DNA of 45,982 nt, taken from the UHGV virus genome UHGV-0170246. The stretch is one strand, 5' to 3'. This DNA is from a virus. The notes under the pieces are model-generated. The model did no database searches. It had not been told where the DNA came from and was given only the letters and a program-made list of their open reading frames with translations. Within the stretch, counting starts at the first letter, position 1. Each line of letters begins with the position of its first letter. Of this stretch, positions 3,304-21,082 are shown one piece after another. The translations under genes and the position numbers were made by a program.

Positions 3304-3657
3304 TTGAGCATGTGGACGGTACTTTTTAGCCAGCGATTTGACGACTGGCTAAATGAGCAAGAAGACGCTCTTCAGGAAAAGGTTTTGGCTGATTTGAAAA
3401 AGCTACAGGTTTACGGACCTGAGTTACCCAGGCCATATGCCGATACCGTAAAAGGTTCTCGGTACAAAAATATGAAAGAGCTTCGCGTTCAGTTTTCTGG
3501 CCGTCCGATAAGAGCCTTTTATGCGTTCGATCCGATTCGCCGGGCCATCGTTCTTTGTGCAGGAGACAAAAGTAACGATAAACGGTTTTATGAAAAACTG
3601 GTGCGTATAGCTGAGGATGAGTTTGCAGCACATCTGAACACACTGGAGAGCAAGTAA
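3304..3657 (+). CDS. RelE/ParE-superfamily toxin, HigB-like (phage Gp49-like)
   Basis: 117 aa; toxin precedes an HTH antitoxin with TAATGA stop/start overlap at 3655-3660; family assignment from recalled pattern. Confidence 0.6.
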   Translation: MSMWTVLFSQRFDDWLNEQEDALQEKVLADLKKLQVYGPELPRPYADTVKGSRYKNMKELRVQFSGRPIRAFYAFDPIRRAIVLCAGDKSNDKRFYEKLVRIAEDEFAAHLNTLESK

Positions 3658-3956
3658 TGAGAACATTAGATGAGGTGATTGCCAGCCGTTCACCTGAAAG
3701 CCAGGCGCGAATTAAAGAAATGGCAGATGAGATGATTCTTGAGGTCGGCTTGCAGATGATGCGTGAAGAACTCCAGTTATCACAAAAACAGGTTGCTGAG
3801 GCGATGGGTATAAGCCAGCCAGCAGTAACAAAGCTGGAGCAGCGCGGAAATGATTTAAAGCTGGCGACATTAAAGCGTTACGTTGAAGCTATGGGAGGCA
3901 AATTAAGCCTGGATGTTGAGCTTCCCACAGGAAAACGAATAGCGTTTAACATCTGA
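3657..3956 (+). CDS. HTH XRE-family antitoxin, HigA-like
   Basis: 99 aa; HTH segment LSQKQVAEAMGISQPAVTKLE; translationally coupled to the upstream toxin. Confidence 0.6.
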   Translation: MRTLDEVIASRSPESQARIKEMADEMILEVGLQMMREELQLSQKQVAEAMGISQPAVTKLEQRGNDLKLATLKRYVEAMGGKLSLDVELPTGKRIAFNI

Positions 3957-3971
3957 TCAGAACGAATGATA

Positions 3972-3997
3972 AGCCCCTGTTGCAAAGGGGCTTTTTT
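3972..3997 (+). terminator. Rho-independent terminator
   Basis: 7-bp stem AGCCCCT/AGGGGCT with a 7-nt loop followed by TTTTTT. Confidence 0.65.
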
Positions 3998-4003
3998 GTG
4001 CTC

Positions 4004-4119
4004 ATAGAATTATATAATTATATATTTATATAAAAAATGCTTTACAGGTGGGAAAAAATTTCCTAAGGTTATAACCGAAACCGAGCGATACCCGCCCTGG
4101 TTAAACCGGAGATAACCCG
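4004..4119 (+). repeat. Conserved promoter/leader cassette, copy A (AT-rich repeat, TTTACA -35 at 4041-4046, ~70-nt leader, GGAG RBS)
   Basis: Near-identical to 13072-13190 and 20695-20812; ends at the ATG of the downstream gene. Confidence 0.7.
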
Positions 4120-4500
4120 ATGAGCATGATTAAAATCCGCAAAAATGCTTTCCTTAAAATTCAAACTATCCTGGCTGGTTCTGTTGGCGTGATTTGCCGT
4201 TCTTCTTCAAGCCGCATCGATGACGGCTACGATGATGAGTACCGTGTGTCCTCGTGCGATGAGGCTTTAACCTGGCTGAAGGAGAATCAGGAACGTGCCC
4301 AGGTATATCTGGAAACAGAGAACGGCAATCAGATGCTGCGTATTAGCGGTCGTTATGGATTTGAAACTACATTCATGGCCTATTTTAATCAGGCTTACTT
4401 TGACAAGGAGCTGGCCTGGTACACTGATCGCATGAGCAAAAGCGAGCCAGCCCCGATTACACCGCCGAACAATAAACCATTTTTATTCCTCGTTAAGTAA
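4120..4500 (+). CDS. Hypothetical protein, first gene after cassette A
   Basis: 126-aa ORF with GGAG RBS inside the conserved leader. Confidence 0.5.
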   Translation: MSMIKIRKNAFLKIQTILAGSVGVICRSSSSRIDDGYDDEYRVSSCDEALTWLKENQERAQVYLETENGNQMLRISGRYGFETTFMAYFNQAYFDKELAWYTDRMSKSEPAPITPPNNKPFLFLVK

Positions 4501-4506
4501 ACACAA

Positions 4507-4533
4507 TGCGCAAAGTGTCATTTTGACACTTTG
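4507..4533. promoter_or_regulatory. Perfect 27-bp palindrome CGCAAAGTGTCA-TTT-TGACACTTTGCG
   Basis: Read directly; upstream of the HTH gene at 4564; a partial copy (AAAGTGTCATTTTGA) is at 13021-13035. Confidence 0.45.
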
Positions 4534-4563
4534 CGAGTGTTAATATTGTGCGAGGAGGATGCT

Positions 4564-4836
4564 ATGACGGGTTATGAATTGAAATTATGGCGTCGTGGGA
4601 TGAACTGGACGCAGGAGCGAGCCGCCGAAGAATTTGGGATATCGTTGGCTACATATAAGCGATATGAGAAGGGGGAGCCGCCGAGGGTCATTGAGATGGC
4701 CATTCGCGTTCTGTCGTTTGACGATATGGTTAAGGATCTTTCACACCTTGATAAAGATGCGATTCTGTTAAGGCTGCAAACCCTTGTATGGGAAAAGGTT
4801 AAAGTGTCGTCAGAATTGGAACAAGGGATCAAATGA
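4564..4836 (+). CDS. HTH XRE-family transcriptional regulator
   Basis: Internal ATG of ORF 4531-4836 preceded by GAGGAGG; HTH segment WTQERAAEEFGISLATYKRYE. Confidence 0.5.
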   Translation: MTGYELKLWRRGMNWTQERAAEEFGISLATYKRYEKGEPPRVIEMAIRVLSFDDMVKDLSHLDKDAILLRLQTLVWEKVKVSSELEQGIK

Positions 4837-4884
4837 TCCTTTACGGATCGTTTTATGGTGGTGTAATGTAAGCGCCAGAAAGAC

Positions 4885-4910
4885 AAAAACCGCCTTGCCG
4901 GGCGGTTTTC
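4885..4910 (+). terminator. Possible rho-independent terminator
   Basis: Hairpin CCGCC-ttgccg-GGCGG extended by A-T pairs, then TTTT. Confidence 0.35.
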
Positions 4911-5607
4911 AGTCTGAAATTTAAATCTTGCTTGGTAGGCTGGATTTAAAAAGACACCTCTTGATTGGGGCGGCTTTCTTGCGTCTAAAGATAATCAAAT
5001 CTTTTTGCGCCTGCAACCCCTTTTTTACTGGTGCCTGTTTCAGACTCACGCTCGCGTCGTTGTCTTTGCCACTTCGTTGGGTTCGGTGTTTTTGGGCGGA
5101 GTGGCGCGCGGGTATGCGTACAAGGGGAAAGTGTGCTGACGCAAGCTAGGAACAGCGATCTAAACTAAGTCGAGTCTGAGAAAGGCAGGAGTGCGACAAC
5201 TCGCCTGTGCTCAATGAGCAGAAGAAGGTATATCAGACGACCAATGGCATGATTGTGGGCCACAGGGCGCACACGGCGGCGAAGCATTGGAAACGATGTG
5301 GAGCTATCTGGTGGCATGAGTTCCGGTACTCGATCTCGAGCTTTTTTTGATGCTTTTGAGAAGGGGCCGGAACTCCGGTAAAGGGCACCCTGTATGGGGG
5401 GAGGGGGGGTTGTGTCTGAAGGGTGGCTATCGGTTATGGTGGAATTATGATGCGTAGAAAAGCGAGTTTGCTGCAAGCTATTGGGTCCATTATTTCTTTG
5501 TTTCCGGCAGTTGATCATTTTCGTCATATGGCGACACGTTCGAGTATGGGCTTGGCGCGTGACGCTGACGCTATTCGAAAGGATTTTCAGAAAGTCTCTG
5601 GTGTTGA

Positions 5608-5645: not shown

Positions 5646-6791
5646 TTATGGTCTGCTTTTCTGTGCCAGCTTATCAGCACATGTTTTTATCAGATCCTGT
5701 AGTGTCCTGGCTGGCAGGTTTGCATCCAGTACGCTGAGTATGCTGTTGTGTTCTGCTTGGTCGACTACTTTGCCTGTCGGTGGTAGTAGCTTGAGCTGAG
5801 GATTCAGGTTTTCGTCAAAGCTGATAAGTGCTCTGGCGTTTCTGAGCAGATCAAGAAGTAAGGCTGATATCACATTTTCCTGAGTCATTGCTGGCAGACT
5901 TAGCGCCGCTTTGGTTTTCCCTGTTGCCTTGTCAAACTCCTTGATTAGTTCCTTCCTGTAGTTCGGTTCCGTTAATAGCCGATTATGCTCTGTTGCCGCG
6001 CGGATAATCGTTTTTTCCTGGTATAGTCGTTTAGCCAGATCACGCTCGTACTGTGTTTTTAACACGCTGCTGATAGCGTTAAAGGCTTCAATGTAGGCCA
6101 GCTTGATATCTTTCACGCTTGGACCGTCGATGCTCTCCATGAGCAAGGTAAATCCGTCTTTTGTCATGCGATAGATTGTTATTTCGCGGTCGCTTCCTTC
6201 CAGCGGTCGTTGCTCTTTAAAGAAGTGACGCGCCGCAGCTGTGCGAGGAATGCGTAACGCATCGATGGCCATAACGATGGAATTGTTTGTGGTGCTGAAT
6301 GCCTGGGCAACATCGGCTGAGGTTGTGAGTGGCTCGTTGTTGCACACCTTAATGTAATACATTGGTTTAGCGTTGAGCGTATCGACAACCTCACGAGCAT
6401 TGTTTGGTGAGACGGTTACGGTCGCGGCCGTTTGCGCGTTCTGGTTGAAGTAGCAGTCTTCCAGCCGTTCGAATACATCCCACGCCTGATCGGTTTCGAG
6501 CATTTTAGCGTGACGTGCAGCCCCGCGTTCTGTCCAGAGGATGAGGGAGCGGACTTTAGGTGAAACTGGATTTTGAGAGTAGTTTAAAGCTACCCGCAAT
6601 TCTTTAAGGTCATTACCAACAACTTTGAAAAAGTGTTTCCCTTCAACGAAACGTGCTTTGTTCTCATGATGATTCTGGCGAATACGCACCGGCTCAGTGC
6701 CGTAAAGCTGTGCTAGTAACTCGGTAGTAATGACAGGGATTTGGTTATGCAGGATAGGCTGTAGGGTGTTAACGGTCGGAAGCGTTTTCAT
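5646..6791 (-). CDS. Antirepressor-like protein (ORF6N-type N-terminus, Rha-like central region)
   Basis: 381 aa; N-terminal pattern PVITTELLAQLYGTEPVRIRQNHHENKARFVEGKHFFK and internal TTSADVAQAF segment typical of phage Ant/Rha-type regulators (recalled domain patterns). Confidence 0.55.
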   Translation of the reverse strand: MKTLPTVNTLQPILHNQIPVITTELLAQLYGTEPVRIRQNHHENKARFVEGKHFFKVVGNDLKELRVALNYSQNPVSPKVRSLILWTERGAARHAKMLETDQAWDVFERLEDCYFNQNAQTAATVTVSPNNAREVVDTLNAKPMYYIKVCNNEPLTTSADVAQAFSTTNNSIVMAIDALRIPRTAAARHFFKEQRPLEGSDREITIYRMTKDGFTLLMESIDGPSVKDIKLAYIEAFNAISSVLKTQYERDLAKRLYQEKTIIRAATEHNRLLTEPNYRKELIKEFDKATGKTKAALSLPAMTQENVISALLLDLLRNARALISFDENLNPQLKLLPPTGKVVDQAEHNSILSVLDANLPARTLQDLIKTCADKLAQKSRP

Positions 6792-6979
6792 TTTGCACCT
6801 CCCATAACTACTTTGGTTACGAGGGAGATTTTTGCGTCAGAAACAGCGTTATCGTTGCTGGCGATGCGCATAGCTTCGCGCTCGATGATTTCAGCCAGGC
6901 GGAATTTATCGGCGTATGAGGCTTTCTTGAGAAGGATCTTTACGAGGTTGACGTAATAGTCATGGGGTAAGTTTGTCAT
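6788..6979 (-). CDS. Small hypothetical protein, first gene of the antirepressor operon
   Basis: 63-aa ORF; its stop overlaps the antirepressor start (ATGA). Confidence 0.35.
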   Translation of the reverse strand: MTNLPHDYYVNLVKILLKKASYADKFRLAEIIEREAMRIASNDNAVSDAKISLVTKVVMGGAK

Positions 6980-7394
6980 GGTGATAGTTCCCTTAAAGGT
7001 TAAGGATACTCACCACCGTCTGGTTCCAATCATTGGGTGGTGAGACGTACAGGGTTGGAACTACCGGTCACCATGGAATCCGGCGAGTCTTACGACTCCC
7101 CCGCACGCCCCACCATAATTTGGGTGTAGCAGTGCTTTACGCATAAAAAAACCGCTAACGCGGTATGCGCCATGATGATTATCGGGGTTCCAATCCCGAC
7201 CGTAGATTTTGCTACGGCTCGGAAAGTGTCCACCAATGGCGCATTTATGTCAATACAGAGGGATTTTAACAGAGACAACCACATAGCGTGGGTTTATTGG
7301 TAGGCAGAAACAAAAAAACCGCCCTATTGAGGACGGTTCTTTCGTGCTGATCGGATTCGCGGTCCTTTCAGCATAACGTCGTTGTACTAATACA

Positions 7395-7414: not shown

Positions 7415-7644
7415 AACTACATTCTTACCCAACTGAGGTGAATAGTCCACTATTCATATAAAAAAATTTAGCTCATTAGCTCATGCAAAATGAAGGTTTT
7501 TAACTTATTTACGTGTAATCTCATGTAATAAAAGCGTTTTTTATTCCTTCATTATGAAGGGTATGACGTGTAATATGGCTTGGGGCCTTTCCGCCGATTC
7601 GCACCCGGGCACTGACTTTCAGGAAAGGATTATCCACTTGCCGT

Positions 7645-7664
7645 ACCACGCAGGCACAAACAGC
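7645..7664. repeat. Direct repeat copy 2 (ACCACGCAGGCACAAACAGC)
   Basis: See copy 1. Confidence 0.6.
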
Positions 7665-7728
7665 GTGCTTGCTCTCGCGTCATTTTCGTCGGTGGGGATG
7701 CCGTGAAACGGCCTGTAAGGGCCACACA

Positions 7729-7851
7729 ATGAAAAAATACTACATGTGTATTTTTATCGTTGTTACTGGAGCTTTGTTTACGCCACATGGGGAGGGTTGG
7801 AAGATTACTGATAACGCTCTGAATGTGACGATAAACATTAGCAGCAAGTAG
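7729..7851 (+). CDS. Possible small hydrophobic peptide (40 aa)
   Basis: In-frame ATG of ORF 7669-7851; one predicted transmembrane stretch (YYMCIFIVVTGALF); followed at once by a strong terminator; no recognisable family. Confidence 0.2.
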   Translation: MKKYYMCIFIVVTGALFTPHGEGWKITDNALNVTINISSK

Positions 7852-7856
7852 CGATT

Positions 7857-7880
7857 AGGCCCCTTCGGGGGCCTTTTTTA
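7857..7880 (+). terminator. Rho-independent terminator
   Basis: 7-bp stem AGGCCCC/GGGGCCT with TTCG tetraloop followed by TTTTTT. Confidence 0.75.
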
Positions 7881-8537: not shown

Positions 8538-8570
8538 TTATATAAATCTATAAAACTATAATTATATATT
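8538..8570. repeat. AT-rich motif locus (TATAAATCTATAAAACTATAATTATATATT) downstream of parG
   Basis: Member of the dispersed TATAATTATATA(AAT) motif family. Confidence 0.55.
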
Positions 8571-9237: not shown

Positions 9238-9246
9238 GTGTTTGGT

Positions 9247-9350
9247 TATATAATTCTATAAATCTATATTTATAGAACGAGGTAAGCATAACCAACTTTT
9301 TGGCGGATGGAAAGTGTTTTATATAATTATATAAATCTATAATCATATAA
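9247..9350. repeat. Two AT-rich motif blocks upstream of parA (candidate par promoter/centromere)
   Basis: TATATAATTCTATAAATCTATATTTATAGA and TTATATAATTATATAAATCTATAATCATATAA read directly. Confidence 0.55.
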
Positions 9351-9839: not shown

Positions 9840-10496
9840 TCATAACCAGTTGACAACACTAACTACGCGGCCAAGAACTTTATAACGCTTAAATTCCTCG
9901 TTATTCAGATGCTTAGTGTTCATTTCAGCATCCCTTTCGGTTGACAGCATAACAGCATTGTCACCCGGTATGACTCTACAGTGCCTCAAAACAACCAGGC
10001 CATTTCTGTCTTCAAGGGCATAGATCCCCTCATGAATCTCTGTATCGTCTGTATTAATCAGGACTTGGGAGCCAGGGGATATTGTTGGTGACATTAACTC
10101 ATCGTTGCTCTGGAGAACTGACAGAGACGATGGGTTGATGTTCTTGCTTCGTAGAATCTCCTGTTCTATCGCCAGCACTGGCTTTTCTCCGGCGTGCGAT
10201 GCTATGTCATTTTTTATAGCTACAAGCCCAGGAATAACAGGAGCGTTAGTATTCTGGGGTGGGAACGGGTTATCTGTTAAGCACGCGATATAAGGCGCTG
10301 ATGCTTTCAGGGCGTGCGCGATTTTCTTGATGGCAGGTATCGATGGTTGTCTTAATCCGGCCTCATAGTTCTGCAAGGTGCTTAAGCCTATTCCAGTGAC
10401 TTGCTGGAGATCTCCGGCAGTCATGCCGGATTGTTTCCGTAGAGTCTGAATGCGCAGACCTATTTCTTTCTTGATGTTCTCGTCGTTGCTTTTCAT
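9840..10496 (-). CDS. CI-like phage repressor (N-terminal HTH, C-terminal LexA/S24-like domain)
   Basis: 218 aa; HTH TAGDLQQVTGIGLSTLQNYEAG; C-terminal region has the overall S24 pattern but the GxSM catalytic motif is not obvious on hand alignment. Confidence 0.75.
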   Translation of the reverse strand: MKSNDENIKKEIGLRIQTLRKQSGMTAGDLQQVTGIGLSTLQNYEAGLRQPSIPAIKKIAHALKASAPYIACLTDNPFPPQNTNAPVIPGLVAIKNDIASHAGEKPVLAIEQEILRSKNINPSSLSVLQSNDELMSPTISPGSQVLINTDDTEIHEGIYALEDRNGLVVLRHCRVIPGDNAVMLSTERDAEMNTKHLNNEEFKRYKVLGRVVSVVNWL

Positions 10497-10532: not shown

Positions 10533-10652
10533 TACCACATTTAGTGGTTTTCACATGGTAAGACGAGAGGTGGACCACAAATAGAAGGTTATTTTTTGTT
10601 TCGCCCATTGAAAAACTCACGATATGTGGTTTTAATACCACATATCGTGGTT
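10533..10652. promoter_or_regulatory. Immunity-region operator cluster: three palindromes of the ACCAC-N5-GTGGT type
   Basis: TACCACATTTAGTGGTT (10533-10549), ACTCACGATATGTGGTT (10615-10631), TACCACATATCGTGGTT (10636-10652) between the divergent repressor and rightward early genes. Confidence 0.65.
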
Positions 10653-10670
10653 TTAACTGGAGTTCGTTAA

Positions 10671-11165
10671 ATGACCTTTCAGGAGTGGGTTGACGAAAAT
10701 GGAGGCCAAATTGGTGTTGCCAGAAAGTTTGGCTTTACGTCATCACTGATTGGTGCCTGGTATCGCTTCGAGAGATTCCCTCGTGCGGATAACCTGACGC
10801 TGCTGGTGGCGTATTCGGAAGGCCGGATTAACGTCCAGCAATGGGCGGCAGATTTTGCCGAACGTCAGCGCCAGCGTAGCGATGGCACATCGGTTCGGCA
10901 GAACAAGATCAAAGGGAATCTCCCTGTTAACTGCTTATCAAGGCTGAAAGCGGTTTTCTCTGAGCTGGGGATGCCTGCGGAGCGTTGCAATCTACGCGGT
11001 CCGCGATTCATTGCTCGCTGGAAACACTCACACGTAACCGTTTCAGAGGTTCGTGATGCGATTACCGTGCTGGAGCTTAAGAATAAAGATTCCAGCGATA
11101 TCGAGCTGATTCATAAGGAGATTAGCAACGCCCGGCGTTCAGCACTTGGGAGGCTTGAGGAATGA
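10671..11165 (+). CDS. Putative HTH regulator, first gene of the rightward early operon (Cro/CII position)
   Basis: 164 aa; divergent from the repressor across the operator cluster; function is by position only. Confidence 0.35.
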   Translation: MTFQEWVDENGGQIGVARKFGFTSSLIGAWYRFERFPRADNLTLLVAYSEGRINVQQWAADFAERQRQRSDGTSVRQNKIKGNLPVNCLSRLKAVFSELGMPAERCNLRGPRFIARWKHSHVTVSEVRDAITVLELKNKDSSDIELIHKEISNARRSALGRLEE

Positions 11166-12643: not shown

Positions 12644-13021
12644 GTGAGACGCGATCTGGATAGCTTGTTTGAGCTATGGGCGCTGTGGGTGCGCAATGGC
12701 TGCAACGCCCGTAGCGGTTTCGCGTCGATGTTAGAAATGATGATGGTTACGCGTTGCCAGTTTACCGGAGGGGGCGGCGCACCAAATGACTCACTGGAAA
12801 CCAGTATCGAGGGAGCTGTGACGGCCCTCACGGTAGTTGATGAGACTGCGGCGCTGGTTGTCCGAATTGAATACGGGGCGTGGGAGATTCGGGGCCTCGA
12901 CATAAATGCACCGCATATTGATAAAGCCCACGCCCTTTCTCTTAGTCTCAGACAGTATCGCCGGAAGCTGGCAAAAGCCAGGGCGTATGTTGTCGACTAT
13001 TTGAAAAAGCGAAGAGAGTGA
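12644..13021 (+). CDS. Possible Q-like antitermination protein
   Basis: 125 aa; N-terminal LWALWVRNG resembles the WGAW region of one Q family; weak and from memory only. Confidence 0.25.
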   Translation: MRRDLDSLFELWALWVRNGCNARSGFASMLEMMMVTRCQFTGGGGAPNDSLETSIEGAVTALTVVDETAALVVRIEYGAWEIRGLDINAPHIDKAHALSLSLRQYRRKLAKARAYVVDYLKKRRE

Positions 13022-13071
13022 AAGTGTCATTTTGAGCTGTTTTGATGGTGTGTAGACATCGGGAACATCGA

Positions 13072-13190
13072 AAATCTATAAATATATAATTATAGATTTA
13101 TATAAAAAGTGCTTTACAGGTGGGAAAAAATTTCCTAAGGTTATACCCGAAACCGAGCGATACCCGCCCTGGTTAAACCGGAGAAATCTG
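13072..13190 (+). repeat. Conserved promoter/leader cassette, copy B (TTTACA at 13113-13118)
   Basis: Near-identical to cassettes A and C; ends at ATG 13191. Confidence 0.7.
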
Positions 13191-14258
13191 ATGAATAAAC
13201 AAGTAATTATTTCTGACTGGATCAACAACCCTAACAGCCTGTTAAGCACTGATACTGGCTACCTATTACGCCATGTTAATGGTCGTATGGTCAAAAGCGA
13301 TGAGCACGAAACCTTTTTCTTTGTTGAAGACGATGGGCGTATCTATGAGGATGGTTACTCTTATGAAGCCCAAACTGGTTGTATCCCTGCGGAGCTGGTG
13401 GACGTAACAGAAGATCTGCGCAAAGCATGGCTTGAACAGCAGCAGCGCGGAGATGATTACGTAAACACCTATCAGGAACGCCAGAACGCGCGTCTTGCCC
13501 GATATATTGCTCGTGCAGAAAAAGCCAGAAAAGAAGGTGCGGTAGCGCATAAGCGAGCGCATGACCTGTTGGATGTGATCCCGTTAGGCCAGCCGATTTT
13601 AGTTGACCATTATAGCGCGAAAGGCCATCGCCGCCGTTTGTCTAAAGCTGATGCGTTATTCAGAAAAGCGTTTGTTGAATGCGAAAGTAAAGCATCACAC
13701 TACGAGAGCAAAGCCGCAGGTGTTGGTCGTAATGGAATTTCGTCTGATGATCCTGATGCGCTATTTAAGTTGCTTCGTAAGCTGCAAGGCTGCATGAAGT
13801 CACACGTCAAAATGAAGGCAGCAAATAAGGCCATTCGCAAATACAAAAAAGACCAATTACAGCAGCTTTCTGCATTAATCGATCTCAGGTTTACAGAAAG
13901 CGAAGCCAAAGAGTTACTGGCCGGAGATTTCTGTGGGCACATCGGATTCCCTTCATACGCACTGAGCAACAATAAGGCCGAAATCAAACGACTACAGAGC
14001 CGTATTAAGGAGCTTGAATCGGTCAAGTCTGTAACAGGAGCACAGCGCGAAGAATACGACGGCTTTTCTATGGAGATAGATCCAGAGGATAACCGCATCC
14101 TGTTTTATTTCCCTGGCAAACCAGAGGCAAACATTCGTTCGCTGCTTAAATCACGCGCCTTTAAGTGGAGTCCAACCCGTAATGCATGGGTTCGCAAGAT
14201 TACTCCAAACGCCCTGGCTGATGCCCGATATCTGAAAGAATCGCTATTGAAAGCCTGA
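13191..14258 (+). CDS. Hypothetical protein (355 aa), first gene after cassette B
   Basis: Long ORF with GGAG RBS in the conserved leader; family not recognised. Confidence 0.5.
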   Translation: MNKQVIISDWINNPNSLLSTDTGYLLRHVNGRMVKSDEHETFFFVEDDGRIYEDGYSYEAQTGCIPAELVDVTEDLRKAWLEQQQRGDDYVNTYQERQNARLARYIARAEKARKEGAVAHKRAHDLLDVIPLGQPILVDHYSAKGHRRRLSKADALFRKAFVECESKASHYESKAAGVGRNGISSDDPDALFKLLRKLQGCMKSHVKMKAANKAIRKYKKDQLQQLSALIDLRFTESEAKELLAGDFCGHIGFPSYALSNNKAEIKRLQSRIKELESVKSVTGAQREEYDGFSMEIDPEDNRILFYFPGKPEANIRSLLKSRAFKWSPTRNAWVRKITPNALADARYLKESLLKA

Positions 14259-14288: not shown

Positions 14289-14320
14289 GTATATAGAATT
14301 ATATATTTATATAAATGTAT
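14289..14320. repeat. AT-rich motif locus (TATATAGAATTATATATTTATATAAATGTATA)
   Basis: Shares the ATAGAATTATATA core with cassettes A and C. Confidence 0.5.
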
Positions 14321-14335
14321 AAGGACGCCTCGACA

Positions 14336-19559: not shown

Positions 19560-19594
19560 TATATATTTCTATAATTATATAAATATATAGTTAC
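19558..19594. repeat. AT-rich motif locus (ATATATTTCTATAATTATATAAATATATAG)
   Basis: Contains the CTATAATTATATAAAT core shared with the par-flanking repeats. Confidence 0.5.
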
Positions 19595-19728
19595 AACATT
19601 CTATGCGCTTTTCTCATGGGCGCACGCATCAACCATGTTTGTCTGATATGCCGCCGCGCCCAAAAATCCTGAATTTATTGGCTGGGATTTTCGTGCGCGG
19701 CGCCACACCAGACAAACAAATCAAATAT

Positions 19729-19804
19729 GGCCCCTTAGCTCAGTGGTTAGAGCAGGCGACTCATAATCGCACGGTCATCGGTTCAAATCCGGTAGGGGCC
19801 ACCA
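19729..19804 (+). tRNA. tRNA with anticodon CAU (Met, or Ile2 if lysidine-modified)
   Basis: Hand-folded cloverleaf: 7-bp acceptor stem GGCCCCT/AGGGGCC, D arm, anticodon loop CTCATAA, T arm GGTTCAAATCC, encoded CCA; strongly resembles E. coli ileX as I recall it. Confidence 0.85.
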
Positions 19805-20111
19805 ATTCACTCTCACACATAAAGATAAGCGCGGTGGAGTTACTTCTTCGTGCTCATCTTTATGCGTGCCTGGTGCGCATTTCGGGCGAACGTGGGGCTA
19901 AGTTACAGGCAGGGCCTGTTATCCGCAAAGGGGTAAAAGCTGGAGCGGCACGGAACTGTAGCCGTGTTACCAAAACAGCGTTGTCGGGCGATATCCGGCA
20001 CACAACAGGCAAGGGCATTAATCAGTCTGGTTAGTGCCCTTTTCGTTGTGTTTGCTGTAGAGCTGGCCAGCGTTATGACTGCCGGAGATAAGCGCCGGAG
20101 GCACAATTAAC

Positions 20112-20699
20112 ATGGAGGCAATTGCATTGTTTAATCTGATTTATGCAGATCCCCCCTGGGAATACAAAGACAAGTGTAAGGATGGGAATCGTGGAGCTGG
20201 TTTTAAGTATCCAACGATGAAAGCTGAGGAGATTGCTCGTATTCCTGTCTGGCAGCTTGCTAATCCTGAATCGTGTTTGTTGGCCATGTGGTGGGTTCCG
20301 ACTCAGCCAGAAGAAGCGTTGCTGGTGGTTAAAGCATGGGGATTCAGGCTGATGACCATGAAGGGCTTCACATGGAACAAATGTGGTAGCCGACAACCAG
20401 ATAAGCTGGTGATGGGGATGGGGCATATGACTCGTGCAAACAGTGAAGATTGCTTGTTTGCGGTAAAAGGCAAACTGCCGACCCGTCTTGATGCGGGGAT
20501 CATTCAGTCGTTTACATCGCCTCGTCTGGAGCATTCTCGGAAGCCTGATGTGGTCCGTGACAAGCTGGTAAAGCTGTTAGGTGATGTTCCTCGTATTGAG
20601 CTGTTTGCTCGCGGTGATTTACCTGATGGCTGGCATGGCTGGGGCAACCAGTGCAATGGAGGTATCCAGTTGCATGATGCTCTCTGGCAAGTGGCATAG
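20112..20699 (+). CDS. MT-A70 family N6-adenine DNA methyltransferase
   Basis: 195 aa; DPPW catalytic motif (YADPPWEY) near the N-terminus. Confidence 0.8.
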   Translation: MEAIALFNLIYADPPWEYKDKCKDGNRGAGFKYPTMKAEEIARIPVWQLANPESCLLAMWWVPTQPEEALLVVKAWGFRLMTMKGFTWNKCGSRQPDKLVMGMGHMTRANSEDCLFAVKGKLPTRLDAGIIQSFTSPRLEHSRKPDVVRDKLVKLLGDVPRIELFARGDLPDGWHGWGNQCNGGIQLHDALWQVA

Positions 20700-20812
20700 A
20701 ATTATATAATTATAGATTTATATAAAAAGTGCTTTACAGGTGGGAAAAAAATTTCCTAAGGTTATACCCGAAACCGAGCGATACCCGCCCTGGTTAAACC
20801 GGAGATAACCCG
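20695..20812 (+). repeat. Conserved promoter/leader cassette, copy C (TTTACA at 20733-20738)
   Basis: Near-identical to cassettes A and B; ends at ATG 20813. Confidence 0.7.
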
Positions 20813-21082
20813 ATGAAAGTACAAGACCGTGAAGTAGTAAAAAACCTCCTGCAATACCTGACCTCAAAAAACCTGACGGGCAGCGTTGAGTTCCGTGAAG
20901 CGTTAAAACATTTCAACGTCACTACGGTTTATCGTTGGGAAAACGAACATTCTGAAAGACCGTATGTGGTGGATGTTTTTGCGCCTGATATTGAGTGCGG
21001 TTTTGAGCGTCATTCGTTCAAGGAGAAACATTCCGCTGATGTTTTTTGTGAGGTTGTATGTGCGGCAGGAGATGATGAGTGA
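20813..21082 (+). CDS. Hypothetical protein, first gene after cassette C
   Basis: 89-aa ORF with GGAG RBS in the conserved leader. Confidence 0.45.
   Translation: MKVQDREVVKNLLQYLTSKNLTGSVEFREALKHFNVTTVYRWENEHSERPYVVDVFAPDIECGFERHSFKEKHSADVFCEVVCAAGDDE

Follow-up and report, generated by a model that had tools for sequence, protein, structure and literature searches.

What is the function of the perfect-armed palindrome that separates a small helix-turn-helix (HTH) gene from the gene upstream of it, named here cassette A? The window analysed (the whole 45,982-nucleotide stretch of UHGV virus genome UHGV-0170246) was described in an earlier note from its sequence alone, and three options were named there for the palindrome: an autoregulatory operator, a transcription attenuator hairpin, or a recombination junction that marks module boundaries. 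The window shares more than 99% identity with Yersinia phages vB_YpM_39, _41, and _44, and about 72 complete E. coli genomes, ATCC 25922 included, contain ~48-kb non-mobilizable plasmids that match it. It encodes an IncFII-type RepA, a Hin-like invertase, a HigB/HigA pair, and a ParA-like protein, together with a CI-like repressor, an Ant/Rha anti-repressor, and P2-like tail genes. By its IncFII-type RepA and its ParA-like, CI-like, Ant/Rha, and P2-like tail genes, the window is a phage-plasmid, the ~48-kb Escherichia/Yersinia type. More distant versions were found in Salmonella (about 71% DNA identity here), Klebsiella aerogenes, Citrobacter, and Yokenella. Near and distant searches of the phage collection returned only the three near-identical Yersinia phages, which made that collection useless for comparison, and vB_YpM_HQ103 was discarded as a relevant relative as it is an unrelated 32-kb phage. 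A paper on ETEC phage-plasmids covers the P1 and SSU5 types, and the literature search found no paper on the regulator of this phage-plasmid.

The 27-mer CGCAAAGTGTCATTTTGACACTTTGCG occurred once in the window, at 4509–4535. The repeat reported earlier is real, and its place is two bases to the right of the 4507–4533 given for it. Both arms of the repeat (CGCAAAGTGTCA-TTT-TGACACTTTGCG) are 12 bp long, as had been claimed, with 100% complementarity. The description as a perfect palindrome is right for the arms; the 3-nt TTT centre is not symmetric, so the 27-mer differs from its own reverse complement and the element is strictly an inverted repeat. Inside it, the 21-bp conserved core AAAGTG-N9-CACTTT (4512–4532) contains the two half-sites of a family-wide motif. 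The window was simulated 60 times with a first-order Markov model: perfect inverted repeats (arms of at least 12, loops of at most 10) had a mean of 0.033 per simulated 46-kb sequence, and 2 of the 60 simulations had any. Because the simulated mean was so low, the inverted repeat is not a chance feature. Its location between the cassette-A ORF (4120–4500) and the HTH gene at 4564 was confirmed on the sequence: the palindrome starts 8 nt past the stop codon of the former (TAA, 4498–4500), and 28–29 bp separate its end from the ATG of the latter. The 27-bp repeat was kept in the Salmonella, Klebsiella, Yokenella, and Citrobacter relatives, and the full-motif scan gave one site in the window and one per relative genome. 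Scanning the window with the half-site AAAGTGTCA at one mismatch or fewer gave 13 matches against 12.7 expected, i.e., no enrichment. A half-site-like AAAGTGTC(G/A) was observed within the HTH coding sequence at 4801–4809, in the codons of a conserved VKVSS motif, and again within the HTH gene at L137 24583 and L138 18414 (L numbers denote the loci of our collection), being exact in Salmonella; this is probably a coincidence.

HTH-relative loci were gathered from genome, viral, and metagenome contigs, and their upstream regions were inspected without a preset sequence. AAAGTG-N9-CACTTT was present at 10 or more of 12 positions in 40 of the 83 distinct upstream regions. This level was reached in 9 of 1776 control windows taken from these loci and in 0.5% of the upstream regions after shuffling. 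With the proteins collapsed into lineages below 90% identity, 17 of 41 lineages had a site at 9 or more of 12 positions, and further lineages showed the variant ATGTG-N9-CACAT. Several lineages had two copies of the motif about 57 bp apart, resembling distal and proximal operators. The motif preceded HTH homologues in many unrelated contexts. On the Providencia chromosome, a stand-alone HTH gene between pyrD and pepN is preceded by AAAGTGACATATTGGCACTTT within a palindrome with 21–24-bp arms. Many metagenomic lineages have AAAGTGCAGAATCTGCACTTT, AAAGTGCAATTATTGCACTTT, or AAAGTGTCATTTTGTCACTTT upstream of the HTH gene, Serratia-type lineages have the variant ATGTGACAAAATGACACAT right after a TATAAT box, and in Yokenella (L021) a divergent gene lies upstream of the HTH operator. 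Near the start of that divergent gene, at about 1325–1390 of the L021 contig, two copies of another short palindrome (ATGTGACACAT / ATGTGTCACAT) were also visible, which may be the sites of a second regulator. About half of the lineages had no recognisable site, mostly those with the gene inside an operon or with less than 45% identity.

The upstream gene did not account for this distribution. In 37 loci where tblastn detected no cassette-A homologue, a site at 10 or more of 12 positions was located within 140 nt of the HTH start, while the four loci with a cassette-A homologue only had no such site anywhere in them. The Citrobacter relatives (L146/L147) lack the cassette-A gene and keep both the palindrome and the HTH gene. 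As the site is kept without the cassette-A gene and is absent where that gene occurs alone, the motif belongs to the HTH gene. It co-occurs with the regulator gene independently of the neighbours, as expected for an operator, and the cassette-A gene (4120–4500, + strand; 126 aa, phrog_8090) showed no functional tie to the palindrome. On comparative grounds the autoregulatory-operator option is well supported, and this support is unusually clean.

The site profile gave conserved sequence at positions ±5 to ±10, with variable positions at 0 and ±1 that were only 33% complementary. The profile sites were chosen by their outer-hexamer pattern, which inflates the information content; because of this selection, the enrichment over controls is the independent evidence. 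Asymmetric half-sites were tolerated, as in Salmonella and E. coli L043, where a TGATAC right half stands against a TGACA-complement left half. Wobble-compatible changes fell on opposite strands in different relatives, and the Yokenella mismatch would wobble only on the opposite strand. Among near-identical copies, substitutions were located in the flanks, the outer arms, and position 4527, with none in AAAGTG, ACTTT, or the −10-like element described below. Judged from the sequences, this conservation pattern is the one that a protein site would leave.

A different reading takes the palindrome as an RNA hairpin, acting on the + strand as a terminator, attenuator, or 3′-end stabiliser of the cassette-A transcript, or on the − strand as a back-up terminator for transcription from the ant operon or from inserted modules. 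The cassette-A leader (4004–4122, + strand) combines an AT-rich palindrome with a promoter-like site (TTTACA-17-TAAGGT) and a conserved 5′ leader. Transcripts initiated there could extend into the 27-bp palindrome, which begins directly past the stop codon of the gene as an intrinsic terminator would. The predicted RNA fold is stable on both strands (−22.2 kcal/mol, z −3.2 on the + strand; −20.5 kcal/mol, z −5.0 on the − strand). The − strand version, a 12-bp stem followed by CATTGTGTTT with a weak T-tract, passed a simple terminator scan. Convergent genes flank the palindrome in the L011 variant. The outer arms differ within the close clade yet still pair (CGC/GCG, GCTC/GAGC, GTGG/CCAC, CATGCGG/CCGCATG), with pairing that reaches 13–16 bp. 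This co-variation extends beyond the family-wide protein core, which counts against a pure operator, and it could point to selection for a hairpin. Template-switch correction of quasi-palindromes can also yield arm co-variation, and the outer arms were imperfect in L020 and L021 and absent in Citrobacter.

Several observations disagree with the hairpin reading. After the stem the + strand continues with AGUGUUAAUAUUG and has no U-tract, and none is present in Salmonella either; the stem followed by AGTGTTAATATTG was not flagged by the terminator scan on this strand. The palindrome also departs from an intrinsic terminator in the AT-rich core of its stem and in the conservation of its sequence, and not only of its pairing, across unrelated contexts, including lineages without a co-directional upstream gene. 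The central positions are frequently non-complementary, and the minimum-free-energy fold of Yokenella L021 leaves the palindrome unused. Cassette-A homologues in L031–L034, which have neither the motif nor the HTH gene, are followed by an ordinary GC-rich terminator. In the window, a good terminator already exists at 4884–4911, a GC-rich stem with T-runs on both sides that was detected as a terminator-like site on the − strand; it is likely bidirectional, ending both the HTH transcript and the convergent ant operon. Rfam 15 gave no match at 4509–4535 or 13021–13035, the only matches in the window being ryfA, C4, isrK, and a tRNA. The attenuator option of the earlier note is thus weak, and a hairpin as the explanation of the palindrome is unlikely. 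A hairpin role could coexist with operator function, as a possible secondary role that is not required.

The proposed binder of the palindrome is the 90-aa Xre/Cro-type protein encoded at 4564–4836 (+ strand; phrog_6962). Residues 6–40 matched Pfam HTH_3 (PF01381) with 29.8 bits against a gathering cut-off of 23, which places the protein in the Xre/Cro-C1 group. The AlphaFold model (pLDDT 82.8) gave helices at 3–12, 17–24, and 28–35, followed by two long C-terminal helices (41–61 and 64–88) that, in the model, look suited to dimerisation. Fold matches were HipB, HigA2, Aca2, RsaL, Aca1, and C.Esp1396I, all with E-values of 0.15 or more and generic Xre folds only. HipB was the best local match, with 1.2–1.5 Å over 33–35 residues and about 36% identity. 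The PDB sequence search gave only marginal HipB/MqsA matches (E of 0.06 or more). In NCBIfam, the protein fell below the cut-off of every named family, the top being RstR (NF041951; 34.1 bits against 80), and it scored 20 bits against a cut-off of 71.65 for the HipB/Y4mF antitoxin profile and 25.4 against 61.8 for MqsA, which places it outside both. The label in all sources was only ‘helix-turn-helix domain-containing protein’. In 21 representative loci, no conserved partner gene (a toxin or a divergent target) was found beside the HTH homologues. A toxin–antitoxin pair made of the cassette-A gene and the HTH gene was considered and rejected because most lineages have the HTH gene without the cassette-A gene. 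The HTH gene was often convergent with an unrelated downstream gene (L049, L077, L086, and others), and the 3′ ends sometimes overlapped by 4 nt.

Between the palindrome and the HTH gene we observed a putative extended −10 element, TGtTAATAT (4538–4546, + strand), and a Shine–Dalgarno sequence read as GAGGAGG (4552–4558, + strand). Each of the six versions in the close clade has TGnTAnnnT exactly 5 nt past the core, with divergent sequence in that 5-nt gap and in the leader. The other versions read TGtTAAAAT in Klebsiella, TGaTAAAAT in Salmonella, TGaTAAATT in Yokenella, and TGtTAGCGT and TGtTAGCAT in Citrobacter. This fixed spacing is seen directly, as are the anatomy of the repeat and the joint occurrence of motif and gene throughout the family. 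Elsewhere in the family, a TATAAT, TAAAAT, or TATAAA box directly borders the site or is overlapped by it, so that the site covers the start of transcription. A consensus sigma-70 −35/−10 scan of 3900–5300 detected no promoter, the scan being blind to extended −10 promoters, so the promoter proposal rests on the conserved extended −10-like motif. TTGACA in the right arm was rejected as a −35 element, since its spacing to the −10-like hexamer is 12 nt and the position at 17 nt reads TTGTGC. A two-fold symmetric site thus lies by the regulator's own predicted promoter, as an operator should.

From these data we infer that the palindrome is bound by the HTH protein, and the stoichiometry, promoter, start site, and direction of regulation that follow are of the same kind. 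A dimer of the 90-aa protein would read the half-sites AAAGTG and CACTTT, with the GTGnCA cores about one helical turn apart. The transcript would start near 4553, which would place the operator centre (4522) near −31. With the site occupied, the −35/spacer region would be blocked and the HTH protein would repress its own gene (negative autoregulation); the bound protein could also impede read-through from the cassette-A promoter. Whether the site covers the −35/spacer region, as here, or the start site, as in other lineages, both geometries predict negative autoregulation. Considering the comparative sequence data together, we assign a probability of about 0.75 to the palindrome being the autoregulatory operator of the downstream Xre-type HTH protein; that the operator is repressive rather than activating is probable and less certain than operator function itself. 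The start position predicted above fits this model poorly in one respect, as it leaves a leader of only ~11 nt with the Shine–Dalgarno sequence at its 5′ end.

The window encodes several other HTH proteins, and the palindrome might instead be the operator of one of them, such as the HigA-like antitoxin (3657–3956) or the CI-like repressor (9840–10496), or of a host factor. The motif co-occurs with the small HTH gene where all other phage-plasmid genes are absent, as on the Providencia chromosome and on Serratia plasmids, the CI-like repressor has its own candidate operators at 10613–10654, and the AT-rich palindromes in the cassette leaders form a repeated motif of their own. Binding by another protein is accordingly improbable.

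Structural variants of the locus bear on the junction option. In L011-type E. coli (L011 1947–2531, CP099184.1; about a dozen loci), a ~567-bp module with a reverse-strand 141-aa gene that has no Pfam match is inserted directly after TAATAT (window 4546) and moves the HTH coding sequence away from the operator and the −10 element. Because of this module, adjacency of the palindrome and the HTH gene is not essential, and since it sits exactly after the −10-like hexamer, any transcription starting at the HTH promoter would cross the 141-aa gene in the antisense direction. In vB_YpM_41 and _44, a 318-bp MITE-like element lies between the Shine–Dalgarno sequence and the HTH ATG; it is absent in _39 and in the window. 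In vB_YpM_41 (L002 3567–3884, OR545054.1) its target corresponds to window 4560–4564, with a 5-bp duplication (GCTAT). The element has 38-bp terminal inverted repeats of Tn3 family type (GGGGTTCCGTGGG…ACGCTAAG, 35 of 38 identical), and unannotated copies of its relatives were found on 368 enterobacterial plasmids. The insertion probably lowers translation of the HTH protein.

Such differences cluster near both the palindrome and a short matching sequence at 13021, as would be expected if the two sites were recombination junctions marking module boundaries in a mosaic phage-plasmid: besides the two insertions, the cassette-A gene is missing in Citrobacter, and a gene is present or absent at 13021. 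However, comparison with related genomes, which the earlier note had suggested, placed the breakpoints 11 to 25 bp downstream of the palindrome, or upstream, and never within it, as expected of any intergenic region. A boundary motif should occur in at least two homologous copies, whereas the full motif was found once in the window and once per relative. The site has no associated recombinase, and the motif is also found with the HTH gene at chromosomal loci that are not mobile.

The junction option also takes in the sequence at 13021. It had been described as the left arm plus spacer of the palindrome, recurring at 13021–13035 as a half-copy upstream of cassette B. An exact 15-mer, AAAGTGTCATTTTGA, is present there (+ strand), but only 9 nt of it come from the left arm, whose outer CGC is missing; the 3-nt centre and 3 nt of the right arm follow. 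A shared 15-mer was observed in about 0.2% of random windows (8 of 4000; chance about 0.002). The placement is correct, about 50 bp before the AT-rich start of the leader at 13072–13193; the term half-copy is misleading. All non-Escherichia relatives have an extra gene of 146–152 aa that overlaps the stop of a 125-aa gene, and in its place the Escherichia type has about 50 nt of filler before the cassette-B leader. The segment 13012–13042 aligned to the interior of this extra gene with scores of 39 in Salmonella (L138), 40 in Klebsiella (L142), and 30 in Citrobacter (L146), against shuffle maxima of 32, 33, and 32, respectively. The homologous place in the relatives reads AAAGGCTCATTTTGA, AAAAGGTCATTTTGA, or AAAAGCTCATTTTGA, 12–13 of 15 positions being identical to the operator 15-mer and none having the GTG core, so the 15-mer was not made by a junction event involving the palindrome. 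Since it corresponds to coding sequence from within a gene that the Salmonella, Klebsiella, and Citrobacter relatives still have intact, the 15-mer is a deletion remnant outside the operator system. On this alignment, it reached identity through about two substitutions and is not a copied operator arm or a junction signal. The 15-mer was invariant in divergent Escherichia copies. It was also considered as a weak second operator and rejected, since its 21-mer matched at only 8 of 12 positions, a level common in controls, and the relatives lack the GTG core. The alignment to internal coding sequence largely refutes the junction option, and that the two sites are recombination junctions is highly improbable.

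The autoregulatory operator proposed here can be compared with known systems. HipB is a negatively autoregulated Xre-family protein, and the hipBA operators are TATCC-N8-GGATA. The HTH protein resembles HipB as a small Xre-type HTH protein with weak sequence matches and a HipB-like local fold. The sites are alike in being palindromic, with conserved outer half-sites, 8–9 non-conserved bp between them, and overlap with the own promoter (predicted here), and some lineages have multiple operator copies as hipBA does. The differences are the lack of a partner toxin gene (the HTH gene is stand-alone in most lineages), another half-site sequence, and two long C-terminal helices in place of the HipB tail. 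The lambdoid 434 Cro/CI proteins use 14-bp ACAAG-N4-CTTGT operators. The likeness to them lies in an HTH_3 protein of a temperate phage, a two-fold symmetric site overlapping a promoter, and autoregulation (proposed here). Unlike the tripartite OR, a single and longer operator (21–27 bp) is present here, and it is located away from the main immunity switch, which apparently consists of the CI-like gene (9840–10496) with 10613–10654 plus a P1-like C4/ant region. Restriction–modification C proteins and Aca1/Aca2 are likewise small stand-alone HTH autoregulators with inverted repeats at their own promoter on mobile elements. However, here no restriction–modification gene is adjacent, no anti-CRISPR gene is recognisable, the fold matches are weak (E of 0.15 or more), and the proposed operator separates the HTH gene from the gene before it rather than preceding a whole operon.

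Phage-plasmids, plasmids, and chromosomes all yielded the HTH gene with its proposed operator, and unrelated cargo genes often converge on it. An extension of the operator reading, which we regard as unlikely, is that the gene and AAAGTG-N9-CACTTT form a self-contained, horizontally mobile regulatory module, perhaps with a target in trans, and that in this phage-plasmid the palindrome also serves as a protein roadblock or hairpin gating read-through from the repeated cassette promoter. If the module part were true, it might, for example, silence or exclude related incoming phage-plasmids bearing the same operator; if the gating part were true, the co-varying outer arms would reflect a dual DNA/RNA role. 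An autoregulated HTH gene with a palindromic operator is commonplace, so the element is not conceptually new. For one uncharacterised family of small regulators of the Xre type, widespread on enterobacterial phage-plasmids, plasmids, and chromosomes and not named specifically by any source, the analysis supplies an operator consensus that can be tested (AAAGTG-N9-CACTTT) together with a promoter geometry. It also aids annotation of the accessory region of a common ~48-kb E. coli phage-plasmid, including the plasmid of the reference strain ATCC 25922, and it removes a misleading lead, as the ‘half-copy’ is a gene-deletion scar and not a module-boundary signal.

Other repeated and structured elements were visible in the window. 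Three near-identical cassette leaders of ~115 bp (4004–4122, 13072–13193, and 20696–20815) directly precede the genes at 4120, 13191 (DUF3560), and 20813. Each has the AT-rich palindrome ATAGAATTATATAATTATAGATTTATAT, TTTACA-17-TAAGGT, and a conserved 5′ leader of ~55 nt (…ACCCGAAACCGAGCGATACCCGCCCTGGTTAAACCGGAG…). The AT-rich part alone was also seen near 8557, 9243–9342, 14299–14322, and 19560–19589. The Salmonella, Klebsiella, and Citrobacter relatives have kept these cassette leaders, which probably act as co-regulated early promoters, and the ~55-nt part may be an RNA element. An inverted repeat with 21-nt arms (AAACTCACGATATGTGGTTTT / AATACCACATATCGTGGTTTT) at 10613–10654, between the divergent CI-like HTH gene (9840–10496, − strand) and the gene at 10671 (+ strand), is a candidate for the main immunity operator. 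Convergent with the HTH gene lies a P1-like ImmI-type immunity region (7033–7120, 7145–7218, 6788–6979, and 5646–6791, all on the − strand), in which a small ORF and the ORF6N/Rha anti-repressor gene are preceded by two Rfam matches, the C4 antisense RNA (84 bits) and isrK (70 bits). A full-length match to ryfA RNA (Rfam RF00126, 134.6 bits) was located at 7581–7879 on the + strand. The two longest imperfect inverted repeats of the window, with 34-nt and 27-nt arms (19636–19868), flank the tRNA gene at 19729–19801.
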